DNA of 64,000 bases from Bdellovibrionales bacterium (GTDB taxonomy: Bacteria; Bdellovibrionota; Bdellovibrionia; Bdellovibrionales; UBA1609), in contig CBDBIB010000001.1 of NCBI GenBank assembly GCA_965205945.1, positions 374,051-438,050 on the forward strand, in the 5' to 3' direction. The notes below the pieces were generated by a model that was given only the letters and a program-made list of their open reading frames with translations, made no database searches and was not told where the DNA came from. Numbering within the stretch: the first letter of the stretch is position 1; each line of letters opens with the position of its first letter. The position numbers were made by a program, and so were the translations under genes. Shown piece by piece: positions 10,106 to 62,398 of this stretch.

Positions 10106-12835
10106 ATGAAACTGCACCATTCATTTTTTTTAAAAGCTTTATCGCTTACTATTTTAGCAGGCTTTCCCATGAAAGCAAACGCACTTCTACCTTATAAATA
10201 TAACTGGACTAAAATTAAGTCTGATCACTTCACCATAATCGTAAATAAAAACTATTCCACTTATGGCAAACTTATTGCTCAAAAAGCTGAGCAAGCCTTT
10301 ACTGCCTTAAAAAAATTTTCCAATAAACACCCCCAAAATACCTTTATCATAATTGATCATACAAAAGGCTTTTCAAATGGAAGCGCAACCTTTTTCCCCT
10401 ACCCTGTCATTACCCTACAACCCGTAATTCCAGATTCAAGCTTAGCTATCGGGCAGTATAAAGACTGGATCTACGAACTCTTAGTTCATGAATATACACA
10501 TATTTTAACCTTTCACAATACAAAAGGCCTATTTACACCTCTTCGTTGGATCTTTGGAAGCACTATCTCCCCTGGGTACTTTATGCCCACATGGTACCAA
10601 GAAGGCCTTGCCATTTTTACTGAAACACACCTTTCAAACGGCGGCAGGCTTCGAACTGCCTCTTACAAAGCTTTAAAAGATGAACTTAAAAGTTTAAGTA
10701 TTTCCATTGCAAATGAGAGCTCTTCTGGTGTATACCCCTTTGGCTTAACTCCTTATGTTTATGGAGGCTGGCTTAATCAGGAGTCATTTTCAAATATTAA
10801 AGATGCTGCTAAAGCTCACAAAAAATTTTCAGGCCGTTTCCCATACCTTATTAATGGAGGCTATAAGAAAAGTAGCGGAAAAAATCTTTACTCTTCCTGG
10901 AAACTTCTTTTTGGAGCCAACAAAAAAGTAACCTCTTTAAAACACACTTTTATTGGAAGGCTTCCAAAATGGGATAAAACAACAAACAGTCTTTATTTTA
11001 TCAAAAAAGATGCTTATCTTTTTGATGAACTCACTGTTCAAAATAAAAAGAACAAACCTAAAACCTTATTTACAGCTCACAATATCCTAGATTTTAAAGT
11101 TCATAAGGAAAATATTTACTACTTAAGCCTTAATCTTCAAAATCAAGATCATCAAATTTACTCCCTTTTTTCATTTAACCTTAAAACCAAAAAAATCACT
11201 CGCTTAAGCAAAAAACAAAATATTCAAAGCTTTGATATCTTTGAAAATGGAAGCATTGCCTTTATTGATGCTAAAATAAACACACAATCCCTTTATTTTG
11301 GAGTTTTAACAAAACTTAATAAAGCCACACAAATCTTTATAGTCTCTGCAGAAAAACGTCTTTCTTTCCCAAGAATTAAAAATAACTCAACAATTTTATT
11401 TGCATTAAAGAAAAACCATTCTAAAGAAACCGTAATCTCCATAAATATCAATACATTAAATCAAACCCCTCTTTTCTCAGTAGATCACCTTATTGGGCTT
11501 GAAAGAAATAAAGATACTTTTTATGCCCTACATGAGTCTAAGGGAATAAAATACCTACAAAACATTAACCTTAATAAAAGTACACAAGTCCACTCCGGCA
11601 TAACATCCTTAAACTTTAAAGATGACAATCATATTTTTTCATCTCGAATTTTATCCAAAGGGCCTCATATTTTATCTAGCGATTTAAACAGTCTAAAAAG
11701 CAATGAAAAACCCATAAAAATTCTAAATCAATCCAAACCCTCTACTTTGATTAAAAAATCAGATCTAAAACATTCTTTATACTCATCTTTTTCTAAACTT
11801 AATCCCCACTACATTATCCCCAATGTTTTAGTCAGTCCCTATGGGTTTTCTGAAGAGTTCTTATACAGCATAAATATTGGCAGCCAGGACCCTCTTAAGT
11901 TTAACTCATACTCTTTAAACATTTCCACTGATACTATTACCAAAAAAGCTTCCACAAATATAAATTACACTTCTCACCACTTCAGGTTACCCATTTCATT
12001 TTCAGCAGGCTTATTTAACAAACCCCTTTCCTTAAATTTATTTAAAAAGTCAACTTTTGCTACCCTTGGAACTGCTTATACCTTAAAAAGTGGTTTTGGA
12101 AAAAAACTAGATTTATTTCTAAGTACTTTGTGGAACCTTACAAATTTTAAAGCAAATGAAAAAATCAACCGCCTTGGCTTATCTTTAAACCTTTTTTACA
12201 ATAATTCTGTTCTACGCTCTAGAGAACTTTCCCCCCGAAAAGGCTACAACTTAAATCTTGAGCTCAAACACTATCTTCCAGGAACTACATACTTTAATTA
12301 CACTCAAGCAAGCCTTAACTTAAAGCTTTTTACTGCTTCCCCTTTTATCAAAACCCATCGTTTAATCTTTGGATTTAATTTTAAGATAAATAATAAAACT
12401 CTTCCATTTATTTTCTCATCAAATTCTTTAAACCAACCCTATAGATACACTTCACCTGGATCCTTTGCACTTAGAGGACTTCCTACAGGAGCGCTCTTTG
12501 CAACTGACTCCTTTGCCATTACACATTTTGAATACCGTTTACCCATTTTAAGTATCAATTGGGGACCTGGACTTTTGCCTTGTTTTTTAAATCGTATCAC
12601 TGGTGCACTTACCGCCGACTATGGCTCAGCAAAAGGTGCTAGCTTTATAAACAAGCGCCTTATCAACCACTCAATCCCGCTATATTCTGCTGGAGGCGAG
12701 CTCATTTTTGAAGGAAAACTCTTTTATCACCTTCCTATAAGCTTACAAATTGGAGCATATAAATTTTTAAACTCTGATATTTACTCAGGTCCACCTGAAC
12801 TTTTTATAGGCTTTAACTTAAACCAATCTAGCTGA
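10106..12835 (+). CDS. Secreted gluzincin metallopeptidase + propeller-like region + Omp85/BamA-type C-terminal barrel
   Basis: Signal peptide; HEYTH...WYQEGLA zincin motif; C-terminal SPRKG, ALRGLP and EYRLP motifs typical of Omp85 barrels. Confidence 0.7.
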   Translation: MKLHHSFFLKALSLTILAGFPMKANALLPYKYNWTKIKSDHFTIIVNKNYSTYGKLIAQKAEQAFTALKKFSNKHPQNTFIIIDHTKGFSNGSATFFPYPVITLQPVIPDSSLAIGQYKDWIYELLVHEYTHILTFHNTKGLFTPLRWIFGSTISPGYFMPTWYQEGLAIFTETHLSNGGRLRTASYKALKDELKSLSISIANESSSGVYPFGLTPYVYGGWLNQESFSNIKDAAKAHKKFSGRFPYLINGGYKKSSGKNLYSSWKLLFGANKKVTSLKHTFIGRLPKWDKTTNSLYFIKKDAYLFDELTVQNKKNKPKTLFTAHNILDFKVHKENIYYLSLNLQNQDHQIYSLFSFNLKTKKITRLSKKQNIQSFDIFENGSIAFIDAKINTQSLYFGVLTKLNKATQIFIVSAEKRLSFPRIKNNSTILFALKKNHSKETVISININTLNQTPLFSVDHLIGLERNKDTFYALHESKGIKYLQNINLNKSTQVHSGITSLNFKDDNHIFSSRILSKGPHILSSDLNSLKSNEKPIKILNQSKPSTLIKKSDLKHSLYSSFSKLNPHYIIPNVLVSPYGFSEEFLYSINIGSQDPLKFNSYSLNISTDTITKKASTNINYTSHHFRLPISFSAGLFNKPLSLNLFKKSTFATLGTAYTLKSGFGKKLDLFLSTLWNLTNFKANEKINRLGLSLNLFYNNSVLRSRELSPRKGYNLNLELKHYLPGTTYFNYTQASLNLKLFTASPFIKTHRLIFGFNFKINNKTLPFIFSSNSLNQPYRYTSPGSFALRGLPTGALFATDSFAITHFEYRLPILSINWGPGLLPCFLNRITGALTADYGSAKGASFINKRLINHSIPLYSAGGELIFEGKLFYHLPISLQIGAYKFLNSDIYSGPPELFIGFNLNQSS

Positions 12836-18540: not shown

Positions 18541-18800
18541 TTAAACCCCCATAAGATTATTCCTAGTAAATATTATAAATGATGATTCATATAAGCTGTT
18601 AGCCAATAATTTGGCTTGCATCACTAAGTCTAGTGTTAGCACCAGCTTAATTATAATTCTTAAAAATTATAATAGTTTATAACAGCTGGCCAAAAGTTTA
18701 ACAGACTAGTTTTGTTTCATTACAATACAATTTTTCTTTCTATATTCATCTTTTTGACTCTAAAAGCAGTTACCTTGGCTAAGAAAAAATGCCCCTGCTT

Positions 18801-18816
18801 TGGCACAGATTATGCT
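18801..18816 (+). promoter_or_regulatory. Sigma-54 promoter
   Basis: TGGCACAGATTATGCT = GG-N10-GC, 37 bp before ATG 18853. Confidence 0.65.
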
Positions 18817-18852
18817 CCTTTAAAAACAAAAGATCGCTCGGGGGGGGGCTTT

Positions 18853-19962
18853 ATGATTAAAACAAAGATTCTTTATATCCTGCCTATTTTAGCATTAAGT
18901 TTTTTTGTGTTTGTGAACTCAAATTTTAACCCTAGTACAAATAAAGCTCAAAACTCTACTAACACTCAAATTTTCAACCTTCACAATACAAATATAAATC
19001 AAAACACTAAATCGATTAAAAACAAGAAGCACTCTCTTGCTTTAATCAATACTTATAAACACCGTTTAGCTAAAAGTAATTTAGCTAAAAGGCGCTCTAA
19101 TGCAAGCCAAAACACTCAAGTAAAGCAAGATTTTCTTAAAAAAAATCCTAAATCTTTAAATAATAAAGTTAAAGCCCAAGCCTCTTATAAAAATTCAAAA
19201 GAAGAAAAAGAGAAAAAAGAAAAAAAAGATGCTAAGCAAATAGCAGAAAAAACTAAAGGCAGTAAGGGAGAAAAAAAACCTGTTTCAAACAAAATTCTCT
19301 TTGAAAAAACAAATAGCTCATCTACATTTTCTAACAATAACTCTTCTATATTTTTTAATTCCATTAATTTAAAGAAAAAAAATAGCTCTAAAAATGAAGT
19401 TAAAGACCCTTTTAAAAAGAAAAACGACTTCATTATAACGTTTAACCAAAATCCTTTAACTTTAGAGGCTGAATATTTTAAAGCTTTTTCTATATCTTAT
19501 TTTAATAATCTTTTAATAAACGAGCAACTTCAAGAGTTTAGTCAAGATTTAAAATTAATTTTAAAAACAAAGAACAACTCCACTAAATTAAGCCATGCTT
19601 ATACAGCAGCTCTAAATTTTTTATTTACCAAAGAAAATGAAGATTTTATTTTATATGATAATTTTTTGCGCACACAGTTTTTAAAACATTCTTTAGCTGT
19701 TAGCATCTCAAAAACTTTTTCTGACAAAACTCTATCCTTAGAGCAAATTGAATACTCTGCAGAATTATTAAACGATTTAGTTTTATCTTGGGATTCTAGT
19801 AAGGATGAGAATAATCAGTTTATCCAAATATATGAACTTTCTGTTTTAAACGCCATTAACCCAGATATAGCCAACAATGAAGCCTTATTAACTTTACAAA
19901 GTTCTATCACTACAACTTTATTTAATATTTCTAATAGCAGTGTTGAAATTTCTGCAAATTAA
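18853..19962 (+). CDS. Hypothetical exported/membrane-anchored protein with low-complexity K/N/S linker
   Basis: ATG 18853 follows a G9 tract and the sigma-54 site; N-terminal hydrophobic anchor. Confidence 0.65.
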   Translation: MIKTKILYILPILALSFFVFVNSNFNPSTNKAQNSTNTQIFNLHNTNINQNTKSIKNKKHSLALINTYKHRLAKSNLAKRRSNASQNTQVKQDFLKKNPKSLNNKVKAQASYKNSKEEKEKKEKKDAKQIAEKTKGSKGEKKPVSNKILFEKTNSSSTFSNNNSSIFFNSINLKKKNSSKNEVKDPFKKKNDFIITFNQNPLTLEAEYFKAFSISYFNNLLINEQLQEFSQDLKLILKTKNNSTKLSHAYTAALNFLFTKENEDFILYDNFLRTQFLKHSLAVSISKTFSDKTLSLEQIEYSAELLNDLVLSWDSSKDENNQFIQIYELSVLNAINPDIANNEALLTLQSSITTTLFNISNSSVEISAN

Positions 19963-40569: not shown

Positions 40570-41343
40570 ATGACGTGGTTTTTTAAAATTATAATAGTAC
40601 TAGCAAGTATTTTACATATTAGTGTTACTCAAGGGGCTTTTTTTTCGACAGAGGATTTTGATGTTGCCCTTGGCGTTCAGGGAAATTCGTTACTATATAA
40701 ACGCGGTATTATTACTTATGAAGGTTATCAGATAGTACCTATTTACACAGTTCAACTATTTAATCCAAAACTTTTTATGGCGGGGGGAGCCCTTTATTAT
40801 AAGCATGAATTAAGTAAAAATCTATTACTACGAACACGCCTTAACTTTGATTCAACTTTAGATAAGCCGTTATATAAAACTTTAGAAGATGAATCAGCAA
40901 GACCTCGTCGAGAAAGTACAACAGAGCTAGATATTTACCTAGAGTATACGGTTATAAATGATAGCTTTTTTAGGTTCTTAATAAGCCAGGACGTAATAGC
41001 TCACAAAGGTAATTATTTTGAATTACGTGGAAGACTAGCACTTCTAGATTTATATAAAAAAAATTTAGAAAAGCCTCTTATTCAATTAGGGATTTTTTCA
41101 TCCATTGGATACGGCAGTAGTCAGCACAATGATTATTTTTATGGAAAGGGTGCTAATAAAGCAGGTTTTAATAACCTTGAATATGGTATATCAATAACAA
41201 GTCCAAAAGTAATAGAAAAGTTTTGGCCAACATTTAAAATCACACGCTTTCATGTATTAGGAAGCAATAACAAAGAGGGCTCTCATATTCAAGAAACTAA
41301 AGGTTGGAGCATTGAGGCTCTTATGGCTTTTCAAGTTTGGTAA
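40570..41343 (+). CDS. MipA/OmpV-family outer-membrane protein
   Basis: Signal peptide, beta-strand pattern, HNDYFYG motif, C-terminal aromatic residue. Confidence 0.7.
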   Translation: MTWFFKIIIVLASILHISVTQGAFFSTEDFDVALGVQGNSLLYKRGIITYEGYQIVPIYTVQLFNPKLFMAGGALYYKHELSKNLLLRTRLNFDSTLDKPLYKTLEDESARPRRESTTELDIYLEYTVINDSFFRFLISQDVIAHKGNYFELRGRLALLDLYKKNLEKPLIQLGIFSSIGYGSSQHNDYFYGKGANKAGFNNLEYGISITSPKVIEKFWPTFKITRFHVLGSNNKEGSHIQETKGWSIEALMAFQVW

Positions 41344-41491: not shown

Positions 41492-43096
41492 GTGTTTAGC
41501 AGTAAGCCTTGGATTTTATTTTTTTCAACATTAGCAAGCGAAGATTTAGCCTTTATTTATGGACTGTTTAATGTACAAGATCAATCTTTACACCCTTTTA
41601 ACTTTATAATTTTTTACTTACTCGGAGTTTTTATTGGAGACATCATACTGTATGGTCTAGGAAAAAGTGCTCGCAAATTATCTAAAACAAAATACTTTTG
41701 CTTTATTCATAAATATATTTACAAAACTCAAAGGAAAAAAAAATTTGATGTTACAAAATTTACAGGTTTTGACCAGTTTTTAGCTTTTACACGGTTCATA
41801 CCAGGTTCTAGAATTCCAACATATATCTACTGTGGGATTTCAAACTATCCATTTTTTAAATTCTGTGCAGTTTTACTTGCAAGTAGCCTATTTTACTCAA
41901 GCGTAGGTCTGCTTATTTTAAAAATGTTTTATTTAGGAATTGATAATGAAACATTCTGGAAAACAAAATTATTGATTGCTTTTTTATCAGCATTTTTAAC
42001 TATTTTATTTTTAAATATTTCTATTAAAATACTAAAATTAAAACTAACTTACAGCGAAATAATCCGTCCTTTAAAAGTATATTTATTACGATATTGTAAA
42101 TTAGAATTTTGGCCATCTTTTATATTGTATGCTCCTTTTGCTCCATACTTTATATATCTATTTTTAAAATATGGAGGTACTAAAACAATATTATCAACAA
42201 ACCCCTCAATAAAAATGAGTGGACTTATTGGTGAATTAAAATCTGATATTGATATATTTTTATCAAAATATATTAAAAATCAGCGCATAAAAACATTTAA
42301 ACTTGATGAAAAAACTCTGCCTTTTGCTAAAAAAATTATGAGTGAAAATAAGTTGTCATTCCCAGTTATTATCAAACCAGATAGCGGAATGCGTGGTGCA
42401 GGTGTTAAAATTATAAAAACAGAAAATGAGTTGGAAGAAATTTTAAATAAAACTGAGGAAAAACAAGTTCTACAAGAATTTTGTGATTTTAAAAATGAGT
42501 GGGGAATATATTACTACCGTTTTCCAAATGCTCAGAGTGGAAAAATATTCTCAGTAACGGTTAAAGAAAAACCTTTAATAACTGGAGATGGAAAATTATC
42601 TTTATATAAATTAGTTTTATCGGATCAACGCCTCTGTCAGAGATTTGATATTATTTTTAAAGAATGTAACTTATCGCCTCATTATATTCCTAAAGTAAAT
42701 GAAAAAGTTCAACTTGTTAATAAAGGAAATCACTCTAAAGGCTGTATTTTTTTAGATGGCTCAGAGTGGGTGAAAAACTCTCAACTTAAAAACGTTCAAT
42801 GGGTCTTAGATCAATTAGAGGGGTTTTATGTTGGTCGGATAGACATTAAATTTCGTGATTTAGAATCTCTATCTTGCGGAGAATTTAAAATTATAGAAAT
42901 TAATGGCGCTGGAGCAGAGTCTTCAAATTTTTATGATCCAAAATTTTCCGTAAAAGAGGCTTATAAAATTATTAAAGAACAATGGACAATTATTTTTCAA
43001 GTTGGTCATATGAATCGTAAACTTGGAAAGGAAACAAAAAAATCAATTTGGAATTTATTTTCTGAAATAATTCAATATCGAAGAATGAAGACATAA
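41492..43096 (+). CDS. DedA/VTT membrane domain fused to an ATP-grasp ligase domain
   Basis: SEDLA, GDIILYGLG, RFIPGSRIPTY (DedA); FPVIIKPDSGMRGAGVK, LQEF, GRIDIK, IIEING (ATP-grasp). Confidence 0.85.
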   Translation: MFSSKPWILFFSTLASEDLAFIYGLFNVQDQSLHPFNFIIFYLLGVFIGDIILYGLGKSARKLSKTKYFCFIHKYIYKTQRKKKFDVTKFTGFDQFLAFTRFIPGSRIPTYIYCGISNYPFFKFCAVLLASSLFYSSVGLLILKMFYLGIDNETFWKTKLLIAFLSAFLTILFLNISIKILKLKLTYSEIIRPLKVYLLRYCKLEFWPSFILYAPFAPYFIYLFLKYGGTKTILSTNPSIKMSGLIGELKSDIDIFLSKYIKNQRIKTFKLDEKTLPFAKKIMSENKLSFPVIIKPDSGMRGAGVKIIKTENELEEILNKTEEKQVLQEFCDFKNEWGIYYYRFPNAQSGKIFSVTVKEKPLITGDGKLSLYKLVLSDQRLCQRFDIIFKECNLSPHYIPKVNEKVQLVNKGNHSKGCIFLDGSEWVKNSQLKNVQWVLDQLEGFYVGRIDIKFRDLESLSCGEFKIIEINGAGAESSNFYDPKFSVKEAYKIIKEQWTIIFQVGHMNRKLGKETKKSIWNLFSEIIQYRRMKT

Positions 43097-43214
43097 AAAG
43101 CATTTTATTTTAAACTTGACCTTGGTTTTTTGTATGATTGTATATATTCTTTAATATATTTTCTTATATACACAGAAAGTAATGGTGGTAATTAATAAAA
43201 AAAGGAGATTTAAA

Positions 43215-43667
43215 ATGAAAACACTAATAGTTATATGTATATCTTTTATGCTAACAACAGCTTTTGCCAAAAATACTAATTATAATATGGATAACGGTTT
43301 ATTTATAAACGGATATGACCCTGTAGCCTACCTTACAAGCAATAAGGCTATAAAGGGAAAACAAAATATACAATATTTGTACAATGGAGTAAAAATTCAG
43401 TTTAGCTCAGAAGAGAATAAGAAAAAATTTATAAAAGACCCTGAAAAAATGCTCCCAGCTTATAAGGGATGGTGCGCTTACGCTATGTCTGAAAAAGCTA
43501 AACTAGTTGAAGTTGACCCTAAGTCCTTTAAAGTTATCAAGGGTAAAACATATCTTTTTTATGATAGCGTCTGGGCCGATACTTTAAAAAAGTGGAATAA
43601 AAAAAATAACGACAATATACAAGTTAAACGAGCTGATATGAATTGGAAAAAGATTTATTTAAAATAA
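43215..43667 (+). CDS. Secreted YHS-domain protein (YHS 'selenoprotein' family, Cys form)
   Basis: Signal peptide; GYDPVAY, FSSEENKKKF..DPEK.LPAYKGWCAYAM; AAGGAG SD before ATG 43215. Confidence 0.85.
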   Translation: MKTLIVICISFMLTTAFAKNTNYNMDNGLFINGYDPVAYLTSNKAIKGKQNIQYLYNGVKIQFSSEENKKKFIKDPEKMLPAYKGWCAYAMSEKAKLVEVDPKSFKVIKGKTYLFYDSVWADTLKKWNKKNNDNIQVKRADMNWKKIYLK

Positions 43668-43677
43668 GGCATTTAAA

Positions 43678-45627
43678 ATGACGCTAACCTGGCATAAAGT
43701 TGCTAAAGTTAACGAACTTCTAGAAGGGCGTGTAAAAACAGTAACCATTGGAACTAAAAATATTGTTCTAACAAAATACAAAGGTATTTATGGCGCCTTA
43801 GATAATGCTTGCCCTCATCAGGGTGGACCTTTAGGAGAGGGATCTATTGAAAATGGTTTTTTACGTTGCCCCTGGCATGGTTGGGATTTTTGTCCTCACT
43901 CAGGTAAACCTCCAGGCGGCTACGACGATGGTGTGGCCGTTTACCCTGTAGAAGAAAGAACTGATGGAATTTATATTCAGATAAAATCTATAAAAGACAA
44001 TAAAACTACAGTAAGTGATAAAATGGTGGAGACCATGATTAATTGGGGCGTAGACACTGTTTTTGGAATGGTTGGACATTCTAACTTAGGTTTTGCTGAA
44101 GCACTTAGAAAACAAGAAGAGCTTGGGAAGCTACGTTTTTTTGGAATTCGTCACGAAGGAGCAGCAGCTTTTGCCTGCTCTGGTTATGCTAAAACAATAG
44201 GAACCCCTGCAGCTTGCTTTACTATTGCAGGACCTGGAGCAACCAATTTATTAACAGGTTTATGGGATGCAAAAGTTGATAGAGCGCCTGTTTTAGCCCT
44301 AACAGGGCAGGTGAATACTCAAGTACTTGGACCGGGAGCTTTTCAAGAAATTGATTTAACATCTGCATTTAATGCTGTAACTAAATTTAGTCAAACTGTA
44401 TTAAATGAATCTGATCAAGTCGAGTTAATGAGCTTAGCTCTTAAAAATGCTATTGTTCATAGAGATGTTGCTCATTTAATTTTACCTGATGAAGTTCAAA
44501 TATTACCTGCAACAAAGACAATGAAGGCCTTAAGTTGTGTAGGTCGATTAGCTGATATGAAAATAAGACCACCACTTCAAGCTTTAGATACTGCATTACA
44601 AAAAATCTCTAAAAGCAAAAGACCTGTGATTATTGTTGGGTATGGTGCTAAAAGATCTATGGTTGATATTATTAAATATGCTCAAGTATTAAACGCTCCT
44701 ATTATAACAACCTTTAAAGGTAAGGGACAAATTTCAGACGCTCACCCTTTAGCCTGTGGTGTTCTTGGACGTAGTGGAACACCCGTTGCTAGCTGGTTTA
44801 TGAACGAATCTGATTTATTAATTGTTTTTGGATCGTCATTTTCTAATCATACAGGAATTACCCCTAAAAAACCCATTATTCAAATTGATTTTGATCCAAT
44901 TCAAATTGGAAAGTTTCATAAAGTAGATATACCCATCTTAGGAGATGTTGGAGTTGTTGCAAACTTACTGCTTGAAAAAATAAATATTAAAGCAGCAAAT
45001 ATACGAATAAATATTAAAGATGAAGTAGCAAAACGTTGGTCTATTTGGAAAAAAGAAAAATTATCTCGCACAAAAGATGATTTTAATAAGGGGATTGGAT
45101 CTGCAGCAATATTTTCTATACTTAAAGATGTTATCCCCAATGATGCTATTATTCCTGTAGACGTAGGTAACAATACTTATTCATTTGGACGGTATTTTGA
45201 GTGTAAAGGTCAAAGCATTTTAATGTCTGGTTACTTAGGGTCCATTGGATTTTCTTTCCCTGCTGCTATGGGCGCTTGGGCTGCAGTTAAAGGACAAAGA
45301 AAAATTGTTTCTATTAGCGGCGATGGTGGCTTTGGGCAATATATGAATGAGTTTACTACTGCTGTTAAATATGACATGGATATCACTCATATTTTATTAA
45401 ACAATTCAGAGCTCGGAAAAATTTCAAAAGAACAACTTTCCGGAGAATGGCCAGTTTGGCAAACCTCTTTACACAATCCAAATTTTGCAAAATATGCTCA
45501 AAATTGTGGTGGCCTAGGAATTCAAGTTAATAAAATTACAGAACTTAAGAGTGCTCTAAACAAAGCTATTGCTCATAAAAAAGGACCCTCTCTTGTTGAA
45601 ATTATCACAGATGCAAAACTCATATAG
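43678..45627 (+). CDS. Rieske [2Fe-2S] domain fused to TPP-dependent enzyme (pyruvate oxidase/ALS family)
   Basis: CPHQGGPL...CPWHGW; IRHEGAAAF catalytic Glu; GPGATN; GDGGF-x-NN TPP motif. Confidence 0.92.
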   Translation: MTLTWHKVAKVNELLEGRVKTVTIGTKNIVLTKYKGIYGALDNACPHQGGPLGEGSIENGFLRCPWHGWDFCPHSGKPPGGYDDGVAVYPVEERTDGIYIQIKSIKDNKTTVSDKMVETMINWGVDTVFGMVGHSNLGFAEALRKQEELGKLRFFGIRHEGAAAFACSGYAKTIGTPAACFTIAGPGATNLLTGLWDAKVDRAPVLALTGQVNTQVLGPGAFQEIDLTSAFNAVTKFSQTVLNESDQVELMSLALKNAIVHRDVAHLILPDEVQILPATKTMKALSCVGRLADMKIRPPLQALDTALQKISKSKRPVIIVGYGAKRSMVDIIKYAQVLNAPIITTFKGKGQISDAHPLACGVLGRSGTPVASWFMNESDLLIVFGSSFSNHTGITPKKPIIQIDFDPIQIGKFHKVDIPILGDVGVVANLLLEKINIKAANIRINIKDEVAKRWSIWKKEKLSRTKDDFNKGIGSAAIFSILKDVIPNDAIIPVDVGNNTYSFGRYFECKGQSILMSGYLGSIGFSFPAAMGAWAAVKGQRKIVSISGDGGFGQYMNEFTTAVKYDMDITHILLNNSELGKISKEQLSGEWPVWQTSLHNPNFAKYAQNCGGLGIQVNKITELKSALNKAIAHKKGPSLVEIITDAKLI

Positions 45628-45635
45628 GAGATTCT

Positions 45636-45842
45636 ATGTCAAAAACTATAGCCGAAAATATAATTTTATTAGCTAATTTATATATTCTAATAGGTTTTAT
45701 TTATTCAGTATATTTTTTTAAAATACGCATTCTAAAAACTGATTCAGTTTTTACTAAAACATGTTGGAGTGTAAAAATTTTAATGGTGCCTGCAACAATA
45801 ATGCTATGGCCACTTATTGCTATTTGTGGAGAAAAAAAATGA
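45636..45842 (+). CDS. Small 2-TM hypothetical protein
   Basis: AGGAG SD; two hydrophobic segments, P..MLWP motif. Confidence 0.7.
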   Translation: MSKTIAENIILLANLYILIGFIYSVYFFKIRILKTDSVFTKTCWSVKILMVPATIMLWPLIAICGEKK

Positions 45843-45985
45843 TTAAAAAACAACGAAGAGCTCATTTATATATTTGGCTATTTTTACTTCCAGCATTAAT
45901 TATTTTATTTTACTTTGTTCAAACTAACCGACAGCTAAATATCAACAAAAACTCTAATAACAAAGGACACCACCATGAGCGTTGA
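45839..45985 (+). CDS. Small 1-TM hypothetical protein (48 aa)
   Basis: ATGA overlap with the previous stop; MIKKQRRAHLYIWLFLLP... Confidence 0.6.
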   Translation: MIKKQRRAHLYIWLFLLPALIILFYFVQTNRQLNINKNSNNKGHHHER

Positions 45986-47027
45986 TTACGTAAGAGTACA
46001 GTGGACAGAGCATAAAAAGTGGTATGATCTAATCTGTGTAGGTTTTTTCTTTTTGTTATTCTTATGTTTTCTAATTACAAGTTTAATTTCTTTTGATAAA
46101 CCGAGTCAGTTTAGTTTTATGACCCTTCTTATACGTGGATTTGGGTTATGTGCTATTACGTTTATACATATTATATTGGCAATTGGTCCTTTAGCACGAA
46201 TAGATAAAAGGTTTTTACCGTTACTTTATAATAGACGTCATTTAGGTGTGATGACATTTTTTATAGCATTTTTTCATGTGTTTTTAGTTATGTTATTTTA
46301 TCATGGTTTTGGAGTAATGAACCCATTAATGTCTCTTTTAATTGGAAATACAGAATACAAGTCTTTATCTGCTTTTCCCTTTGAATTATTTGGGTTAGGT
46401 GCTTTTTTTATTTTATTTATGCTAGCTTCTACGAGTCATGATTTCTGGCAGAAATTTTTTGGTAAAATCTTCTGGAAATCAATGCATATGTCTATTTACT
46501 TAGCCTATTTTTTAATAATAACTCATGTTCTCCTTGGAGTTTATCAATCCGAACAAAGCCTTATTTATACCTTTCTTATAGTTTTAGGGTTTTTAAGTAT
46601 AAGTGGATTACACATAGCTGCGGGAATAAAAGCTTATAAACTTGATGCTATAAATGTGTCAAAATTAAACTGGGTAAAAGTTGCAAAAATTAGTGAGTTT
46701 ATTCAAGATAGAGCTAAGGTTATTACTACAAAGAATGGAGAGAGTGTTGCCATATTTAAACATAAAAAAGGTTTTAGTGCTGTAACAAATGTTTGCGCTC
46801 ATCAAGGTGGCCCTCTTAGTGAAGGTAAAATTATTGATGGTTGTATTACTTGTCCATGGCATGGATGGCAATATAAGGTTGAGGATGGTCAGAGCCCTCC
46901 GCCTTTTGAAGAAAAAATATGTACATATGAAACTAAAATAACTGATGGTTATGTCTATGTCTTTGCTCAAGCAAAACCCCCAGGAACCTTTATAACACCC
47001 TTAAAAAGTGGAGAATTAAGTGAATAA
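45975..47027 (+). CDS. Ferric-reductase/MsrQ-like heme-b membrane domain fused to a C-terminal Rieske domain
   Basis: ~6 TMs, RRHLG...H and WKSMH...Y...H His pattern; CAHQGGPL...CPWHGW. Confidence 0.88.
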   Translation: MSVDYVRVQWTEHKKWYDLICVGFFFLLFLCFLITSLISFDKPSQFSFMTLLIRGFGLCAITFIHIILAIGPLARIDKRFLPLLYNRRHLGVMTFFIAFFHVFLVMLFYHGFGVMNPLMSLLIGNTEYKSLSAFPFELFGLGAFFILFMLASTSHDFWQKFFGKIFWKSMHMSIYLAYFLIITHVLLGVYQSEQSLIYTFLIVLGFLSISGLHIAAGIKAYKLDAINVSKLNWVKVAKISEFIQDRAKVITTKNGESVAIFKHKKGFSAVTNVCAHQGGPLSEGKIIDGCITCPWHGWQYKVEDGQSPPPFEEKICTYETKITDGYVYVFAQAKPPGTFITPLKSGELSE

Positions 47028-47781
47028 AGATGAATTTTATGTTGGTTATTTTCCAATGCCGAAAACTTATAAAAAGTTTTTATTTGTTATTTTAACTATA
47101 ATAGCTATTTTCTTTACTATATTAGTTTTTATTGTTGCTAAAGAGCAAGTTCAACCTAAAAATGGAGTTGGTTGGAATCCTAACGGGGATGGAGCTATTA
47201 TTGTTAAAGGTGTAATATCAAAATTCCCCTATGATTTACTACGCTTTAAAGAGTCAAAAAAAAGTGCTGTTCAAACCGCGATATTAACATCTATGACAAA
47301 AACATCTATTCAAAATCGTATAAAAGGAAAATATGATAAAGCCTTAGATTTAAAAGGAGTTATGATCCGTCAAAATGGCCGATTTGTTTTCTCAGTATTA
47401 GACGGTAAAGAAAGCATTAAGATTTCAGATTTTAACCCTTTAGATTTTAGCCCTTTAAAAACTAAGATGATAGGTATTGTTCATCTACAAGGAGAAATTA
47501 TTGATCCAAAGTGTTATCTAGGAGCAATGAAGCCAGGAGGGGGCAAGGTTCATAAATCTTGCGCTGTTCTATGCATCCGTGGTGGAATTCCTCCTATGTT
47601 TGTAACCAAGAATGAACTCTTAAATGAAACTTATTATTTACTAACTGATAAAAATGGTGGTCCAATAGTAGAAGATATTATTGCTTATGTTGGTGATCCA
47701 GTTTCAATTACAGGGTTTGCTGAAAAACATGATGATATGTTATTTCTTCGTTTAGATGTGGAATCAATAAAAAGATTATAA
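47020..47781 (+). CDS. Membrane-anchored hypothetical protein with Cys/His motif
   Basis: DEFYVGY N-terminus, one TM, GEIIDPKCY...HKSCAVLCIRGGIPP. Confidence 0.8.
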   Translation: MNKDEFYVGYFPMPKTYKKFLFVILTIIAIFFTILVFIVAKEQVQPKNGVGWNPNGDGAIIVKGVISKFPYDLLRFKESKKSAVQTAILTSMTKTSIQNRIKGKYDKALDLKGVMIRQNGRFVFSVLDGKESIKISDFNPLDFSPLKTKMIGIVHLQGEIIDPKCYLGAMKPGGGKVHKSCAVLCIRGGIPPMFVTKNELLNETYYLLTDKNGGPIVEDIIAYVGDPVSITGFAEKHDDMLFLRLDVESIKRL

Positions 47782-47793
47782 AGGATACCCATT

Positions 47794-49407
47794 GTGAAAA
47801 AAATTAAAGTGTTTGAGTTAAATGAATTAGTTGATCGTAGGCCAAATTATAAATTAATATCCGGTGTTGATTTAGTTATCATTCGCTATGATGATCAGGT
47901 TTCAGTAATGTATGGGCGCTGTTTACATCGTGGTGCGCTAATGTCTGATGGGCATATTGATGGAAATAACCTTATTTGTGGAGTTCATGGTTGGGACTAC
48001 CGTTTAGACACAGGCATAAGTGAGTATAATAATAAAGAGGCTCTGAAAAAATTTAACTCTTGGATTGACAATGGTGTAGTTTTTCTTGATGCCGATGAGG
48101 TAAGCGAGTGGGCAAAAAATCACCCACAGCCATTTAATCGTGAAGAGTACCTTGGCTTATATCAAGATGCTCATATAACAGAAGAAGAACCTGAAAATCA
48201 TTTAATTCAACACCTTGCTAAACACGGTCTAAAAAAATCAGGGCCCCATGGCCCAACGGGTGCTATGGGGGTTGAAAAATCAAAACTTCCCCATTGGAAT
48301 GAAATACAAATTACTACAGCTCAATTAAAACGTTTTCCATTATTAGATAATGAGCCTGTTAAAAGTAACGTTGTCATTGGCCCTAAAGCTCGTAAACCTT
48401 TACACCTTAAAATCCCATTATTTGTTTCAGATATGAGTTTTGGTGCCTTATCAGAAGAAGCTAAAATAGCTCTTGCAAAAGGCGCTGAGCTAGCCGGCAC
48501 TGGGATTTGTAGTGGAGAAGGGGGTATGTTACCAGAAGAGCAGGCTTGTAACTCAAGATATTTTTATGAGTTAGCATCCGGACGCTTTGGTTATGACATT
48601 AAAAAAGTTAAGCTTTGCCAAGCTTTTCACTTTAAAGGCGGACAAGGCGCAAAAACTGGAACAGGAGGGCATTTACCAGGAAGTAAAGTTAGTAAAAAAA
48701 TTGCTTCTGTTCGAGGTTTACAAGAGGGACAAGCCGCAATATCACCAAGTCGATTTTCTGATTGGGAAAGCCTTGATGATATAAAAAAATTTGCAGATAA
48801 AGTGCGTCAGGCTACAGGGGGAATACCTATAGGGTATAAACTCTCGGCTCAAAGAGTAGAAGAAGATATTGCCGCAGCTCTTTATATTGGAGTTGACTAT
48901 GTGATTCTTGATGGGCGAGGTGGCGGTACAGGAGCTGCTCCACTAATTTTTAGAGATCATATTTCTGTTCCAACCATACCAGCTTTAGCTAGAGCCCGAC
49001 GCTATTTAGATGCTCAAAAAGCGTCTCATGTAAGTTTAATAATTACAGGGGGACTACGTGTAGCACCAGATTTTGTTAAAGCCCTAGCTCTAGGGGCTGA
49101 TGCTATTGCACTGTCTAATTCAGCACTCCAAGCAATTGGTTGTTTAGGCATGAGGGCTTGCCACACAAACAATTGCCCAGTGGGTATTGCAACTCAAAAA
49201 AAAGATTTACGACGCCGTTTAGTTATTGATGAATCTGCAAAACGATTACATCGTTTTTTTAGCGCCTCAACAGAATTAATGCAAGTAATGGCTCGTGCTT
49301 GTGGACATAATCATTTATCAAAATTTAACTTAGAAGACTTAGTAACGCTTAACCCCTCTATGTCAAAGCTTAGTGGTGTTCATTTTGCAGGAGATTCAAT
49401 TTTTTAA
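47794..49407 (+). CDS. Rieske domain fused to glutamate-synthase-type FMN/[3Fe-4S] domain
   Basis: CLHRGA...CGVHGW; DMSFGALS, SGEGG, GQGAKTGTGGHLPG, DGRGGGTG, CLGMRACHTNNCPVGIATQ; no amidotransferase domain. Confidence 0.92.
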   Translation: MKKIKVFELNELVDRRPNYKLISGVDLVIIRYDDQVSVMYGRCLHRGALMSDGHIDGNNLICGVHGWDYRLDTGISEYNNKEALKKFNSWIDNGVVFLDADEVSEWAKNHPQPFNREEYLGLYQDAHITEEEPENHLIQHLAKHGLKKSGPHGPTGAMGVEKSKLPHWNEIQITTAQLKRFPLLDNEPVKSNVVIGPKARKPLHLKIPLFVSDMSFGALSEEAKIALAKGAELAGTGICSGEGGMLPEEQACNSRYFYELASGRFGYDIKKVKLCQAFHFKGGQGAKTGTGGHLPGSKVSKKIASVRGLQEGQAAISPSRFSDWESLDDIKKFADKVRQATGGIPIGYKLSAQRVEEDIAAALYIGVDYVILDGRGGGTGAAPLIFRDHISVPTIPALARARRYLDAQKASHVSLIITGGLRVAPDFVKALALGADAIALSNSALQAIGCLGMRACHTNNCPVGIATQKKDLRRRLVIDESAKRLHRFFSASTELMQVMARACGHNHLSKFNLEDLVTLNPSMSKLSGVHFAGDSIF

Positions 49408-50223: not shown

Positions 50224-50671
50224 AAACTCTTCCTTTTAAATTCCCGAAAACTTTAACTTTTGCAAAGTTGTTAGTCCTAAAAGTCGTCATTCCCCATGAA
50301 CATCCAAGTGTATAACCTCTCCCCTTCCTACGGCTAGCCATCTTATGGTCACTTGGGAAAACCTTTTAGACTCTGTAGCACCGTTATTCTTATCAAAAGC
50401 CTCTCCATAATCTAATTAACAGTGATTATTGATATATACTACCTAAAGAAGAAAATAATTTTTATGGCTAGCGACTATACCATAAATAAAAAGCCTGCTG
50501 CCAAACTCAATTAAAATTCTTACGAAGAAATTTTGTGATTAAAAATAAGATGCTTAATTTATAGACTTTTTATGAATTAATTTTTATTCCTTAATAAAAT
50601 AAAGTTAAATCCGGGGTATCTAAACTCGGCTTTTATTGCTCCTAACGAGACTAACACGTAGTCTAATATTC

Positions 50672-52075
50672 ATGGATTATAGAATAGAAAAAGACAGTAT
50701 GGGTGAAGTTAAGGTTGAATCTTGTAAACTTTGGGGGGCTCAAACTCAACGCTCTTTAAAAAATTTTAAAATCGGTTTTGATAAATTTCCAAGAGAGATG
50801 ATTCGCGCCTTTGGAATTTTAAAAAAATCCTGTGCAAGAGCAAACATGACCTTAGGCTTATTACCTAAAGAAAAGACAACAGCAATTTTAAAAGCCGCTG
50901 ATGAAGTGATTAAAGGAAAATTTGATTTAGAATTTCCCTTAGTTGTTTGGCAAACAGGCAGTGGAACACAGTCTAATATGAATTCTAATGAGGTTATTGC
51001 AAACCGTGCAGCTCAAATCATGGGTTTTACTTTAGACGTTAATAGTAATGAGAAAAAAGTTCATCCCAATGACGATATTAATAAAGGACAATCTTCAAAC
51101 GATGTTTTTCCAACAACTATGCATATTGCAACATCAGAAATGATTGCAAAGAAGATGATTCCAGCTTTAAAAAATTTAAAAAAATCTTTAGAAAAAAAAC
51201 AAGATGAATTCTCTGATATTTTTAAAATTGGAAGAACTCATTTTATGGATGCAACACCACTAACCCTAGGCCAAGAGTTTTCAGGGTATGTTAGGCAAAT
51301 TGAGCTTTCTATTAAGCGTATTGAGTTTGCACTAACAGGCACTTTAGAACTTGCAATCGGCGGAACAGCTGTTGGAACAGGTTTAAATACTCATGAAACT
51401 TTTGACCAAACAGTTTCAAAATATATAGCTGAAGAAACAGGTTTAGCTTTCATGTCTGGGAAAAATAAGTTTGAAGGGCTTGCTGCCCATGACGCTATGG
51501 TCTTTTTAAGTGGATCCTTAAAAACTGTAGCTGTAAGTTTAATGAAAATTGGAAATGATATTCGTATGCTTGGCAGCGGTCCAAGGTGTGGAATTGGAGA
51601 GTTAAACCTTCCTGCAAATGAGCCGGGAAGTTCTATTATGCCTGGAAAGGTTAACCCTACGCAGGTAGAAGCTCTTACAATGGTTTGCGCTCAAGTTATG
51701 GGAAATGATGCAGGTGTTGCTATTGCAGGGTCTATGGGGCATTTTGAATTAAATGTTTTTAAGCCAATGATTGTTCATAATGTTTTACACTCAATCCGTC
51801 TTTTATCAGAGGCTTGTAATAGTTTTAGAGTAAATTGTTTAGACGGGATTATAGCGAATAAAGAAAAATGTGCTAACCATTTAAACAATTCTTTAATGCT
51901 AGTAACAGCATTAAACCCACACATTGGTTATGATGCATCAGCAAAAATTGCAAAGAAAGCCTTTAAGGAAGGAACTACATTAAAAAAAGCTGCAATCTCT
52001 TTAGGCCTTTTAACAGAGACTCAATTTAAAGACTGGGTTAAACCTAGTAATATGATAAGGCCTTTAAAAACATGA
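50672..52075 (+). CDS. fumC: Fumarate hydratase class II
   Basis: [28 protein letters not shown]. Confidence 0.97.
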
Positions 52076-52941
52076 GTTTACCTAAACAATGCTCTTGGAT
52101 TAACAATAAAGATATTAGGCCTTATTTTTTTATAAGAAAAGAGAATTGGTTTAAAGAGCCTGGTTCTTTTCTAAAGAATTGTAATTGGTTTAAAAATTTA
52201 AAAGTTTTAAAAAAAGATCCTCTTTCAATGAAAGAAAAAGATTTTACTAAAATTATTCTAGAAATTGAAAGTCGAGTTTTTCATCAAAGTGGTATGCCTA
52301 TGCCTGGCTGGGTTTTTTATGACTGTGGGCTTATTCCAGGCATTGTAACAGGTTTTGCACATAAAACATCTCAACTTCCAAAAAGTATTAAGGCTATTTT
52401 AAATAAAGACTTACTTAAAACAGAATGGACACCGTTATCGCTTTTCATTGCTATTCCTTGCGGAAATAAAAAAGAATGGGTTGCACATAATTTAAGCTCT
52501 ATAAACAATCTACTCTCGAAAAAAAATAGATTTTATGGACTAGGATTTTTATCTAAATGCTTTGGTCTTTGGTATTCAAATATTAAACAAATTTGTGGAA
52601 TGACTCAATGGCAAAGCCCCGCACTTAAATTACATGTTAATTACGGGAACTTTGAAATTTTAACTTCCTACACACCTATTCACTCACATCCTCAAACATT
52701 AACATATAGATGTAGTCTAAATTTTAATTCATGGAAGAGGTTTTTTGATAAAACTACAGATGGTAACTTTTCTAAAAAATTTGAATTAGTAAATAAATTA
52801 AAAATCAATCCGACTGATCAAAAGAGTTTAATTAAAACTCAATCTTTTTTAGAAAAAAATGACGAGTCATTTTATTTAAGGCCAGATCAGATTAAGAATG
52901 CTAATGTTGGAGACGTTTTAAATATTTATAAACGCGTTTAA
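52072..52941 (+). CDS. Hypothetical protein
   Basis: 289-aa ORF overlapping the fumC stop (ATGA). Confidence 0.7.
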
Positions 52942-61375: not shown

Positions 61376-62398
61376 TTAAATATATAGCTCTGAGGAAGAA
61401 GCTGCCTTTAGTTTTTTTTCTATGGAATGTGGCCTAAAAAATTTACAACTAGAAAGCAAATAAAAATTAGCAAGGATTTTTAAACGACCTTTCTTTATAG
61501 CTGGATTAAAAGAACTCATAGCAGATCTGTGTAAAGAAATTTTTTCCTTAGTTTTCTTACTTATTTCCTTAGTAAAAGGGTTCGGTAGGGTTTTTTGTAT
61601 GTGTCTTTTTAAAAGTTTTAAATGTTTTCGTATAAAATCATGATCACTAGAAAGAACACTGTCATAAAAACTAATGAAAGTCATTTCAGAGTTTGAAAGT
61701 GCACACCCCATCCAAGGTGCTTGCTCTTCACCCATAAAAATAAATTTATTGTTTTGAAAATCACCAAGTTTTTCTTTAGCAATCTTAAATTTTGCAGTAA
61801 TTACGTCAAAATCTTTTGATTTTTTAATCTTTTTCCTAAAGTCGTTAAAAAAATCTTTTTCTGGTAAAATATCATTCAACTCTTGTACCGGGGCTGTCCA
61901 AATAACATGTTCAACTTGAATACGTGTTTTTCCATTAAGTTCAAGCAAGTTATAATTAGAGTCTTTAGAGGTTTTAAAAAGTGCTGTGATTTGACTATGT
62001 AAAAAAATATTTTTTACATTTTGAGTTGAAAAACTATTTTTTTTAATTCCTGTTACAATATAAGTTTTCTTAGATGTAAAAATATCAATAAGATCAATTG
62101 TTGATATCTTTTTATCCCCAAAACCTATAAAAGGTATTAGTCCTTTTTTTCCACTACATAAAGTTTCTAAAAATTCAGTATCATATTTAAAAAGATCTAA
62201 ATTTTTTTCTTGCGTCCAAATTAAAGATTCAAGAGAAAAAAAATTTTCTTCACCCTCCCTCATTAAAGAGCCTCCAAGTTCACCAGAACTTTCAATCAGA
62301 ATGGAATCTTTACCTTTAGTTTGAAGTTTTTTAAAAACACTAAGGCCTACAAGGCCTCCTCCAACTACTAAATATTCAACCTTATTAGGGACTTTCAT
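61376..62398 (-). CDS. Divergent FAD/NAD-binding oxidoreductase-like protein
   Basis: N-terminal VVGGGLVGL...IESSGELGG dinucleotide-binding motif. Confidence 0.6.
   Translation of the reverse strand: MKVPNKVEYLVVGGGLVGLSVFKKLQTKGKDSILIESSGELGGSLMREGEENFFSLESLIWTQEKNLDLFKYDTEFLETLCSGKKGLIPFIGFGDKKISTIDLIDIFTSKKTYIVTGIKKNSFSTQNVKNIFLHSQITALFKTSKDSNYNLLELNGKTRIQVEHVIWTAPVQELNDILPEKDFFNDFRKKIKKSKDFDVITAKFKIAKEKLGDFQNNKFIFMGEEQAPWMGCALSNSEMTFISFYDSVLSSDHDFIRKHLKLLKRHIQKTLPNPFTKEISKKTKEKISLHRSAMSSFNPAIKKGRLKILANFYLLSSCKFFRPHSIEKKLKAASSSELYI

Follow-up and report, generated by a model that had tools for sequence, protein, structure and literature searches.

Why should three unrelated proteins encoded side by side in a small bacterial genome each carry a Rieske [2Fe-2S] domain? 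The question is raised by a 64,000-nt stretch of DNA from a Bdellovibrionales bacterium (hereafter the window, from whose first letter all coordinates are counted), in which an earlier note had read a six-gene operon with three Rieske fusions and had proposed an oxidation route from amino acid to 2-oxo acid to carboxylate, with the electrons passing to the membrane. Six co-oriented open reading frames (ORFs) are confirmed on the + strand at 43678-49407, the strand that carries all genes of the unit, and the fusions prove to be real by their Pfam matches, and by their CxH...CxxH cluster ligands; the junctions between the six genes measure in order +8, -4, -11, -8 and +12 bp. Our best explanation is that the genes at 41492-49407 encode an uncharacterised modular electron-transfer system linked by Rieske domains. 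Our tentative reading, to which we give slightly less than an even chance, is that these domains pass electrons from flavoenzymes outward across the membrane to periplasmic redox proteins of the Cys/Sec type, probably as a defence against stress.

That no characterised pathway has this architecture, as had been suspected from the sequence, is in line with what we found: full-text literature (main texts without supplements, which could hold expression or fitness data) yielded no study of the fusions, and the proteins fall short of the PoxB, GltBD and MsrQ family criteria by the scores given below. In the literature the only trace is a bacterial ferric-reductase-type domain (FRD) architecture that includes a Rieske domain and that the legend to a figure of PMC3591440 lists as model M4.

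The Rieske-TPP and Rieske-GltB enzymes

The first of the six genes (43678-45627, +, 649 aa) encodes a PoxB-like thiamine pyrophosphate (TPP) enzyme, Rieske-TPP, which matches the Pfam Rieske family (PF00355, cut-off 20.3 bits) with 63.0 bits and the N, M and C TPP_enzyme domains with 105.8, 111.7 and 116.1 bits, and the translations of all three fusions retain the Rieske ligands, as CPH...CPWH, CAH...CPWH and CLH...CGVH. The closest solved relative is E. coli PoxB (3EYA/3EY9, 224 bits), aligned over PoxB residues 2-527 of 572, with the RHE region of the catalytic Glu and the GDGGF...NNS TPP motif conserved relative to 3EYA. The protein ends 5 residues past the aligned part, so that it has no counterpart of the C-terminal membrane-binding peptide that couples PoxB to quinone. 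Rieske-TPP shares its three TPP-enzyme domains with PoxB, POX and PQO but differs from PoxB in an added N-terminal Rieske domain and in the absence of this peptide, so that its electrons probably leave by the Rieske cluster and not to quinone or O2. It also remains under all NCBIfam equivalog cut-offs, scoring 407.9 against 742 for PRK08611 and 294.7 against 792 for PRK09124.

The last gene (47794-49407, +, 537 aa) encodes Rieske-GltB, in which a Rieske domain (46.6 bits) precedes a flavin mononucleotide (FMN)-binding glutamate synthase domain (Glu_synthase, PF01645, 309 bits). As the earlier note held, the protein is an FMN/[3Fe-4S] enzyme free of glutaminase: Pfam detects no Ntn amidotransferase, central or GXGXG domain, and the score against NCBIfam PRK11750 is 152.8 for a cut-off of 1047. 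It aligns at 120-135 bits with the FMN domain of the glutamate synthase (GltS) structures 7MFM, 1EA0 and 1LLW, keeping the [3Fe-4S] motif CX5CX4CP (C-LGMRA-C-HTNN-C-P, for C...C...CP in GltS) and a QGAK...LPG.KV...VRG motif, whose Lys and Arg we take to be the 2-oxoglutarate-binding residues of GltS. The likeness to GltB and to ferredoxin-dependent GltS hence covers the FMN TIM-barrel synthase domain, the [3Fe-4S] motif and the QGAK...R substrate motif, and the difference lies in the Rieske domain, present where GltS depends on ferredoxin or on GltD, of which the genome has none. N-methylglutamate synthase (mgs), brought up by a preprint as a possible identity for this enzyme, was rejected as a different, split GltS-like enzyme that has no Rieske domain.

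The N-terminal module of this enzyme is replaced in several relatives. In 13 of 201 Rhodobacterales genomes a 64-67% identical GltB core matches Rieske-GltB only from about residue 126 on, and in the one such form that was read (L252:7844-9373, genome G074) two CDGSH [2Fe-2S] domains (zf-CDGSH, 77.5 bits) stand in the place of the Rieske domain. Two further proteins of 949-954 aa (P0242 and P0243, representing clusters of 47 and 71 sequences) carry [FeFe]-hydrogenase catalytic and small-subunit domains and ferredoxin motifs fused to a 44-45% identical GltB core. Because Rieske is exchanged for CDGSH or [FeFe]-hydrogenase modules in this way, the N-terminal domain of the GltB-like core is, as far as domain architecture tells, an exchangeable electron plug, and the existence of the hydrogenase fusions suggests an H2-linked use of the same core and that this core may be able to work as a reductase. 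As side observations, an ORF resembling an FAD (flavin adenine dinucleotide) oxidoreductase lies downstream of the CDGSH-GltB form in G074, and in G174 the CDGSH-GltB form directly adjoins a Rieske-TPP gene.

Both Rieske-fused enzymes are conserved over long distances, at 57-71% identity across phyla (those listed include roseobacters, Nitrospina, Marinimicrobia, sponge and clam symbionts and cyanobacteria), with Rieske-GltB at 65-71% across many phyla. Such conservation points to an important reaction on a central metabolite.

A dihaem membrane protein with a predicted periplasmic partner

Between the two enzyme genes lie those of the membrane module. The third Rieske fusion, FRD-Rieske (45975-47027, +, 350 aa), joins a Ferric_reduct domain (PF01794, 36.4 bits, cut-off 28) to a C-terminal Rieske domain (59.9 bits), and H89 and H101 of helix 3, H171 and H184 of helix 5 and the Rieske ligands are invariant in 15 FRD-Rieske sequences. 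Given six helices, positive-inside loops and an Fe-S domain that would be cytoplasmic, the inner haem is predicted to sit at H89/H171 and the outer haem at H101/H184. The protein is reminiscent of the periplasmic methionine sulfoxide reductase system MsrPQ (YedYZ), where a ferric-reductase-type haem b membrane protein passes electrons to a periplasmic partner, down to the four conserved histidines of transmembrane helices 3 and 5. It differs from that system in scoring 44.9 against the MsrQ model NF003831 (cut-off 130), in the absence of MsrP from the genome, in its fused cytoplasmic Rieske domain and in a partner, described below, that is a membrane-anchored Cys3-His-Met beta-barrel protein rather than a molybdoenzyme. 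With NOX, FRE and STEAP proteins it shares a cytoplasmic electron-input domain at the C-terminus of a dihaem FRD domain; unlike NOX and FRE it has there a one-electron Rieske domain and no FAD/NADPH dehydrogenase, and a separate dehydrogenase must for that reason feed it. We infer that its output is a protein partner and not O2 or free Fe(III). The Rieske domains themselves resemble, in their soluble fold of the low-potential type, NirD and the Rieske ferredoxins of ring-hydroxylating dioxygenases, and match the NCBIfam models of NirD (56.6 bits), AndAb and HcaC, all below cut-off; they differ in being fused to three different enzymes, with no oxygenase or BphA4-type reductase present.

The partner, for which we use the working name DUF253, is a 253-aa Cys/His protein (47020-47781, +) with an N-terminal membrane anchor and a probably periplasmic domain. 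Like the two small proteins described below it belongs to no Pfam family, and none of the 120 homologues listed out of 755 is named beyond "hypothetical protein". Its motif D-x-K-C...G-A-M-K-P-G...H-x-x-C-A-x-x-C is invariant, and D162, K164, C165, G168-G173, G175, H178, C181, A182, C185, G188, G189 and P192 are kept in 36 diverse members. The AlphaFold2 (AF2) model (mean predicted local distance difference test, pLDDT, 82.7; predicted template-modelling score 0.72) features an anchor helix at residues 15-42 and two beta-barrels, for which fold searches return generic oligonucleotide-binding (OB)-type barrels only: the best Foldseek match is the single-stranded DNA-binding protein 1SE8 (E 2e-5, TM 0.23) and the best VIA match has Z 6.6, and an Atlas search gives only the label "DUF5666". 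Export by the twin-arginine route was considered and rejected, the RR-x-h-h pattern being present in just 3 of 14 and 4 of 36 sequences and replaced by KK in the window protein, with a few more rows carrying RR by eye beyond that count. Since the twin-arginine motif is not conserved, the domain is probably Sec-exported, which would make an Fe-S cluster assembled in the cytoplasm unlikely.

Co-folding of FRD-Rieske with two haems and DUF253 gives an ipSAE of 0.81, as compared with 0.00 for the best of three controls. Solved complexes attain this mark in 116 of 157 cases and mismatched pairs in 2 of 215, counts that are rough owing to custom alignments and the inclusion of haem. The runs share at least 71% of contacts, with a partner pLDDT of at least 81, and predict two interfaces: in one the anchor helix of DUF253 is in contact with FRD helices 1 and 2, and in the other DUF253 residues 170-188, within the invariant motif, lie on FRD residues 108-137 and 187-201, which on our helix assignment would be the periplasmic loops above the outer haem. 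The model supports binding of DUF253 to FRD-Rieske, for which we know of no similar solved complex. Independent support for the complex comes from natural fusions. Among 172 longer FRD-Rieske relatives, of which the best 120 measure 614-727 aa and all contain PF01794 and PF00355, the two that were checked (P0130 and P0143) carry a DUF253 homologue with its motif after the Rieske domain, and a further in-frame FRD-Rieske-DUF253 fusion is found at L048:2110-3921. The checked single-chain fusions come from Bacteroidota and a Nitrospirales metagenome-assembled genome (MAG), and other long matches are named from Acidobacteria, Myxococcota and Phycisphaerales. The membrane module with a periplasmic partner put forward in the earlier note is thereby backed by both structure prediction and gene fusion.

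Two tiny membrane proteins complete the module. The two-helix protein tiny1 (45636-45842, +, 68 aa; 79% identical in the congener G003) aligns with a small ORF 5' of FRD-Rieske in other phyla, in which G20, F27, D36, P52, W58 and P59 are invariant. The single-helix protein tiny2 (45839-45985, +, about 48 aa; likewise 79% identical in G003) has its likeliest start in the ATG at 45839, in an ATGA overlap with the tiny1 stop and with GGAG 8 nt upstream. The two appear to be joined in alphaproteobacteria, in an ORF of 116-142 aa that aligns with tiny1 over its N-terminal half and by eye resembles tiny2 over its C-terminal half. Together with DUF253, the small membrane proteins are assigned to the dihaem protein as its conserved subunits.

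Extent, distribution and neighbourhood of the system

The operon extends probably beyond the six genes first described, so that their grouping stands and the full size does not: the unit likely spans 41492-49407, because in other phyla, Planctomycetota among them, the membrane module again has homologues of the two upstream genes as neighbours. The nearer of these (43215-43667, +), which ends 10 bp before the Rieske-TPP gene, encodes a YHS-domain protein of the periplasm that bears a signal peptide and has one conserved Cys, in a GWC motif; its start is placed at the ATG at 43215, with AGGAG 8 nt upstream and with the G003 alignment beginning at residue 12 of the longer ORF. It matches NCBIfam NF041384 (YHS_seleno_dom) with 112.2 bits (cut-off 70), and GWC is kept throughout 17 alignments of homologues taken from the loci; those of the FRD-Rieske loci all have it within P-[AS]-Y-G-G-W-C. 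A Cys aligned with the Sec of relatives is normally redox-active. NF041384 is tabled as a selenoprotein family with motif GxU in a 2026 review (PMC13188914), and a YHS-domain selenoprotein is tabled in an earlier survey (PMC2398784). The probable first gene of the unit (41492-43096, +, 534 aa; 78% identical in G003) encodes a candidate fusion of a VTT/DedA-like membrane domain to a RimK-type ATP-grasp ligase domain (VTT/ATP-grasp), with 29.6 bits for Pfam RimK (cut-off 21) and 26.9 bits, below the cut-off of 33.9, for VTT_dom; its homologue in locus L182 scores 59.6 bits for VTT_dom and 16.8 bits for RimK. A gap of 118 bp 5' of the YHS gene could hold a promoter; a consensus scan returned 30 promoter-like sites, fewer than the 44.7 of shuffled sequence, and a terminator scan gave none that was convincing.

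The host genome (G000; 1.87 Mb, 97.3% complete, about 32% G+C) offers an ordinary chromosomal setting, with genes for SmpB, KsgA, TsaD, enolase, SecDF, Tgt, IleRS and PriA in the window. A Rieske domain search of the genome finds the three domains of the operon and no others, including no classical cytochrome bc1 Rieske subunit, and tblastn finds no further POX/ALS-family TPP enzyme, ALS/ilvB type included, and no other GltS-family gene or GltBD. Neither MsrP (PF00174), GltD (PF14691) nor the BphA4-type Rieske-ferredoxin reductase (PF14759) has a single match in G000; glutamate dehydrogenase is present. With only three Rieske domains and no BphA4-type reductase, MsrP or GltD, the operon's own flavoenzymes are the obvious redox partners, and in a 1.87-Mb genome with no other Rieske, POX-family or GltS-family proteins cross-talk with other systems is unlikely, making the window a useful minimal case.

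Among 31 genomes (G000 and relatives) full-length Rieske-GltB is present in three, namely G000, G003 (91% identity) and G021 (70%), and 22 more hold only a 31-38% identical paralogue without the Rieske part. The congener G003 has the whole set at 78-91% protein identity, running from a MipA-like gene through VTT/ATP-grasp, YHS, TPP, tiny1, tiny2, FRD and DUF253 to GltB; G021, from the same order Bdellovibrionales, retains the tiny1-like, FRD, DUF253 and GltB genes. About 250 kb away in G021 lies a 180-aa open frame (G021:C1:477740-478267), 78% identical to the C-terminal quarter of Rieske-TPP and probably a remnant of the TPP gene. Patchy distribution, taken together with the 65-71% identity of Rieske-GltB to proteins of many phyla, indicates that the system has spread horizontally.

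In other genomes the modules keep company far more often than chance would allow. We scored adjacency as a tblastn match over at least half of the query, and as many contigs are short the counts are lower bounds. Rieske-TPP adjoins 28 of the 80 best Rieske-GltB loci, FRD-Rieske 15 and DUF253 14. Conversely, the 80 best FRD-Rieske loci include DUF253 in 72 and an upstream tiny1-like ORF in 72, Rieske-GltB in 16 (one of them 33% identical), Rieske-TPP in 11, YHS in 16, and a VTT/ATP-grasp homologue and an extracytoplasmic function (ECF) sigma factor in 13 each, the VTT/ATP-grasp homologues lying 3' of FRD-DUF253 with 26-33% identity over at least half of the query. Of the 201 Rhodobacterales genomes 22 carry Rieske-GltB, 18 Rieske-TPP and 22 FRD-Rieske, and 16 have the complete trio, as against 0.2 expected under independence (Fisher p 1e-16 to 1e-19, for related genomes that are not independent); rarity of such co-occurrence, named in the earlier note as what would overturn its proposal, is thus the opposite of what we see. 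Rieske-GltB accompanies 17 of the 18 Rieske-TPP genomes, the eighteenth having the CDGSH variant of GltB adjacent, and 17 of the 22 FRD-Rieske genomes. As the three fusions are unlinked in several of these genomes (for example G118, G187 and G222) and co-occur nonetheless, the functional link is strengthened. An obligate unit of three, implied by the earlier proposal, has to be given up, with Rieske-GltB often found alone and the Phycisphaerae membrane module mostly accompanied by neither flavoenzyme.

The neighbours of the system elsewhere share a theme of thiol and oxidative stress. Phycisphaerae fuse the YHS domain to an AhpC/TSA redoxin with a CPYC motif (Pfam), in the gene order ECF sigma, anti-sigma, SpoIIE-type phosphatase, tiny, FRD-Rieske, DUF253, redoxin-YHS, DoxX_2, DinB_2, TANGO2 and VTT/ATP-grasp, where the sigma and anti-sigma labels derive from Pfam on alphaproteobacterial homologues and tblastn matches and the other labels from Pfam on the proteins themselves. 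Alphaproteobacterial GltB loci feature an ECF sigma factor with a zf-HC2 anti-sigma protein (ZAS) of about 100 aa, a Na/H-exchanger-family protein and DUF5996; Marinimicrobia and Lentisphaeria loci have glyoxalase and pirin genes, and some gammaproteobacterial ones EgtB-like genes. A link to ergothioneine synthesis was considered and set aside, with EgtB-like genes in only 5 of 80 GltB loci and none in G000, and we regard the association as accessory. DUF5996, with invariant H23, P181, H182 and D185 (for example L060:11663-12514, and in 17 other GltB loci), is found beside Rieske-GltB and Rieske-TPP in other genomes more often than any other neighbour; its AF2 model has a pLDDT of 95.5 and no PDB match at E<=0.001.

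Proposed source, direction and destination of the electrons

On the outward reading that we favour, the PoxB-like enzyme would oxidatively decarboxylate a 2-oxo acid (pyruvate or 2-oxoglutarate), releasing electrons through its own Rieske domain as an irreversible source, and the GltS-like FMN/[3Fe-4S] enzyme would exchange electrons by way of Rieske with a glutamate/2-oxoglutarate-like substrate, serving either as another donor or as a sink in the cytoplasm. From the cytoplasmic Rieske domain of the FRD protein electrons would move to the inner haem (H89/H171), the outer haem (H101/H184) and, at the periplasmic side, the Cys3-His-Met site of DUF253, and from DUF253 to the periplasmic YHS protein with its Cys at the position of the relatives' selenocysteine. 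The likely purpose would be to provide reductant for thiol, peroxide or metal chemistry in the periplasm, as a stress defence independent of NAD(P)H, thioredoxin and quinol. As a functional analogy only, this proposed delivery of cytoplasmic reducing power to periplasmic Cys proteins may be compared with DsbD/CcdA, from which it would differ in its carriers, Rieske and haem b in place of a relay of cysteines, and to which it bears no sequence relation.

A wider claim, possible though doubtful, is that the system embodies a new way to power the periplasm: a Rieske-haem conduit fed from 2-oxo acids and glutamate by the Rieske-tagged enzymes and leading via DUF253, as a periplasmic redox centre of a new kind, to Cys/Sec YHS and redoxin proteins, with Rieske domains serving as interchangeable, oxidant-tolerant plugs by which different enzymes could dock on one conduit. 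If true, it would stand as another option next to the cysteine relay of DsbD and to MsrQ fed by quinol. Export of electrons to periplasmic Cys/Sec proteins by the membrane module would in itself rank with DsbD/CcdA and MsrQ as a third way of redox supply to the envelope, and would lend functions to DUF253, both tiny membrane proteins, the YHS (seleno)protein and, in other genomes, DUF5996.

Several observations weigh against outward flow from the operon's flavoenzymes. The replacement of Rieske by CDGSH domains or by [FeFe]-hydrogenase and ferredoxin modules would fit a GltB-like reductase, that is an electron sink, better than a donor; the route from a one-electron haem to reduction of a thiol site is unclear; and DUF253, for which searches return OB barrels at a best VIA Z of 6.6, has no recognisable cofactor fold. 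The pairing of modules is incomplete as well. Of five genomes with a GltB locus lacking the other fusions, G033 has Rieske-TPP elsewhere, and three (G031, G032 and G034) have neither Rieske-TPP nor a full FRD-Rieske, as MAGs that may be incomplete. The 151 Phycisphaerae genomes include 20 with FRD-Rieske and two, both FRD carriers, with full-length Rieske-GltB, leaving 18 of the 20 FRD-bearing genomes without it, and the planctomycetes G036 and G037 have a complete membrane module and neither flavoenzyme. In FRD genomes devoid of the flavoenzymes the membrane module must have other donors. The stress link, finally, rests on neighbours in other phyla, with no homologues of ECF, EgtB, DUF5996 or the matching Na/H exchanger found in G000.

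The strongest competitor keeps the electrons in the cytoplasm: Rieske-TPP would be the donor and the Rieske-GltS-like enzyme the acceptor of a closed couple for reductive amination or imine reduction driven by a 2-oxo acid, for example ferredoxin-free glutamate synthesis, with the membrane module a separate client that shares the Rieske plug. We consider this rather unlikely, even though to our knowledge all known GltS enzymes run reductively, the P0242 and P0243 fusions point the same way, Rieske-TPP is in Rhodobacterales never without a GltB-like partner (Rieske-GltB in 17 of 18, the CDGSH variant beside the other), TPP adjoins GltB in 28 of 80 GltB loci compared with 15 of 80 for FRD, and a single 1195-aa protein on one contig (P0241, weak evidence) unites Rieske, a partial GltB core, a second Rieske and TPP. 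Against it stand the glutamate dehydrogenase already in the genome, the FRD, DUF253 and tiny genes that lie with overlapping reading frames between both enzyme genes in the window, the finding that of the 17 Rhodobacterales genomes in which both enzymes occur 16 have FRD-Rieske too, and the frequency with which Rieske-GltB is found without the TPP enzyme. The route proposed earlier, from amino acid to carboxylate, would in its fullest form be a catabolic respiratory branch in which the GltS-like enzyme turns glutamate into 2-oxoglutarate, the TPP enzyme turns this into succinate and CO2, and four electrons reach a periplasmic respiratory carrier via the dihaem protein, to the benefit of an amino-acid-feeding predator in whose genome no Rieske/bc1 complex is seen. 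The POX/ALS family includes enzymes that act on 2-oxoglutarate, such as MenD and the cyanobacterial 2-oxoglutarate decarboxylase, and the retained Lys/Arg motif of GltS, presumably binding 2-oxoglutarate, and the lack of any other Rieske protein (hence of a bc1 Rieske subunit), POX/ALS or GltS enzyme in the genome would also suit such a branch. It is nevertheless improbable: the operon is patchy within its own order, with full-length Rieske-GltB in 3 of 31 genomes and the TPP gene of G021 reduced to a 180-aa remnant, which argues against core energy metabolism; its neighbours elsewhere are stress and thiol genes rather than respiratory ones; and glutamate dehydrogenase is present. Both this route and its electron direction remain inferential, and a reductive role of the GltB-like enzyme fits at least as well, since relatives carry CDGSH or [FeFe]-hydrogenase modules in the place of Rieske.

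The opposite direction, in which quinol or a donor in the periplasm would reduce the dihaem protein and the Rieske domain of this protein would feed cytoplasmic Rieske enzymes acting as reductases, would agree with the reductase role of the GltS-like core in all studied relatives, and seems very unlikely because oxidative decarboxylation of the PoxB type is practically irreversible, so that the TPP enzyme cannot be a sink, and because the conserved periplasmic partners (DUF253, YHS and redoxin-YHS) resemble acceptors rather than substrate dehydrogenases. MsrQ-type proteins do accept electrons from the quinone pool, as stated in the abstract of PMC12525009, which speaks for inward flow, whereas NOX and FRE, FRD proteins with fused cytoplasmic redox domains, send electrons outward according to the part of PMC3591440 that treats them. 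That the genes are unrelated neighbours whose common Rieske domains are coincidental is least credible of all: each module is indeed found alone in many genomes, but the reading frames overlap, G003 retains the complete set, the genes are neighbours again in several phyla and genome-level co-occurrence lies far above chance.

Elsewhere in the window, a fumarase C gene and a 289-aa ORF without a Pfam family (52072-52941) overlap by 4 bp within 50636-52941, and long ORFs of 909, 416 and 340 aa, at 10106-12835, 18712-19962 and 61376-62398, match no Pfam family at E<=1e-5. Just 5' of the unit (40570-41343) lies a gene for a MipA-like outer-membrane protein, scoring 20.5 bits and so under the cut-off; it is also found near the module in G003 (87% identity) and G021 (41%), which may be lineage synteny only.

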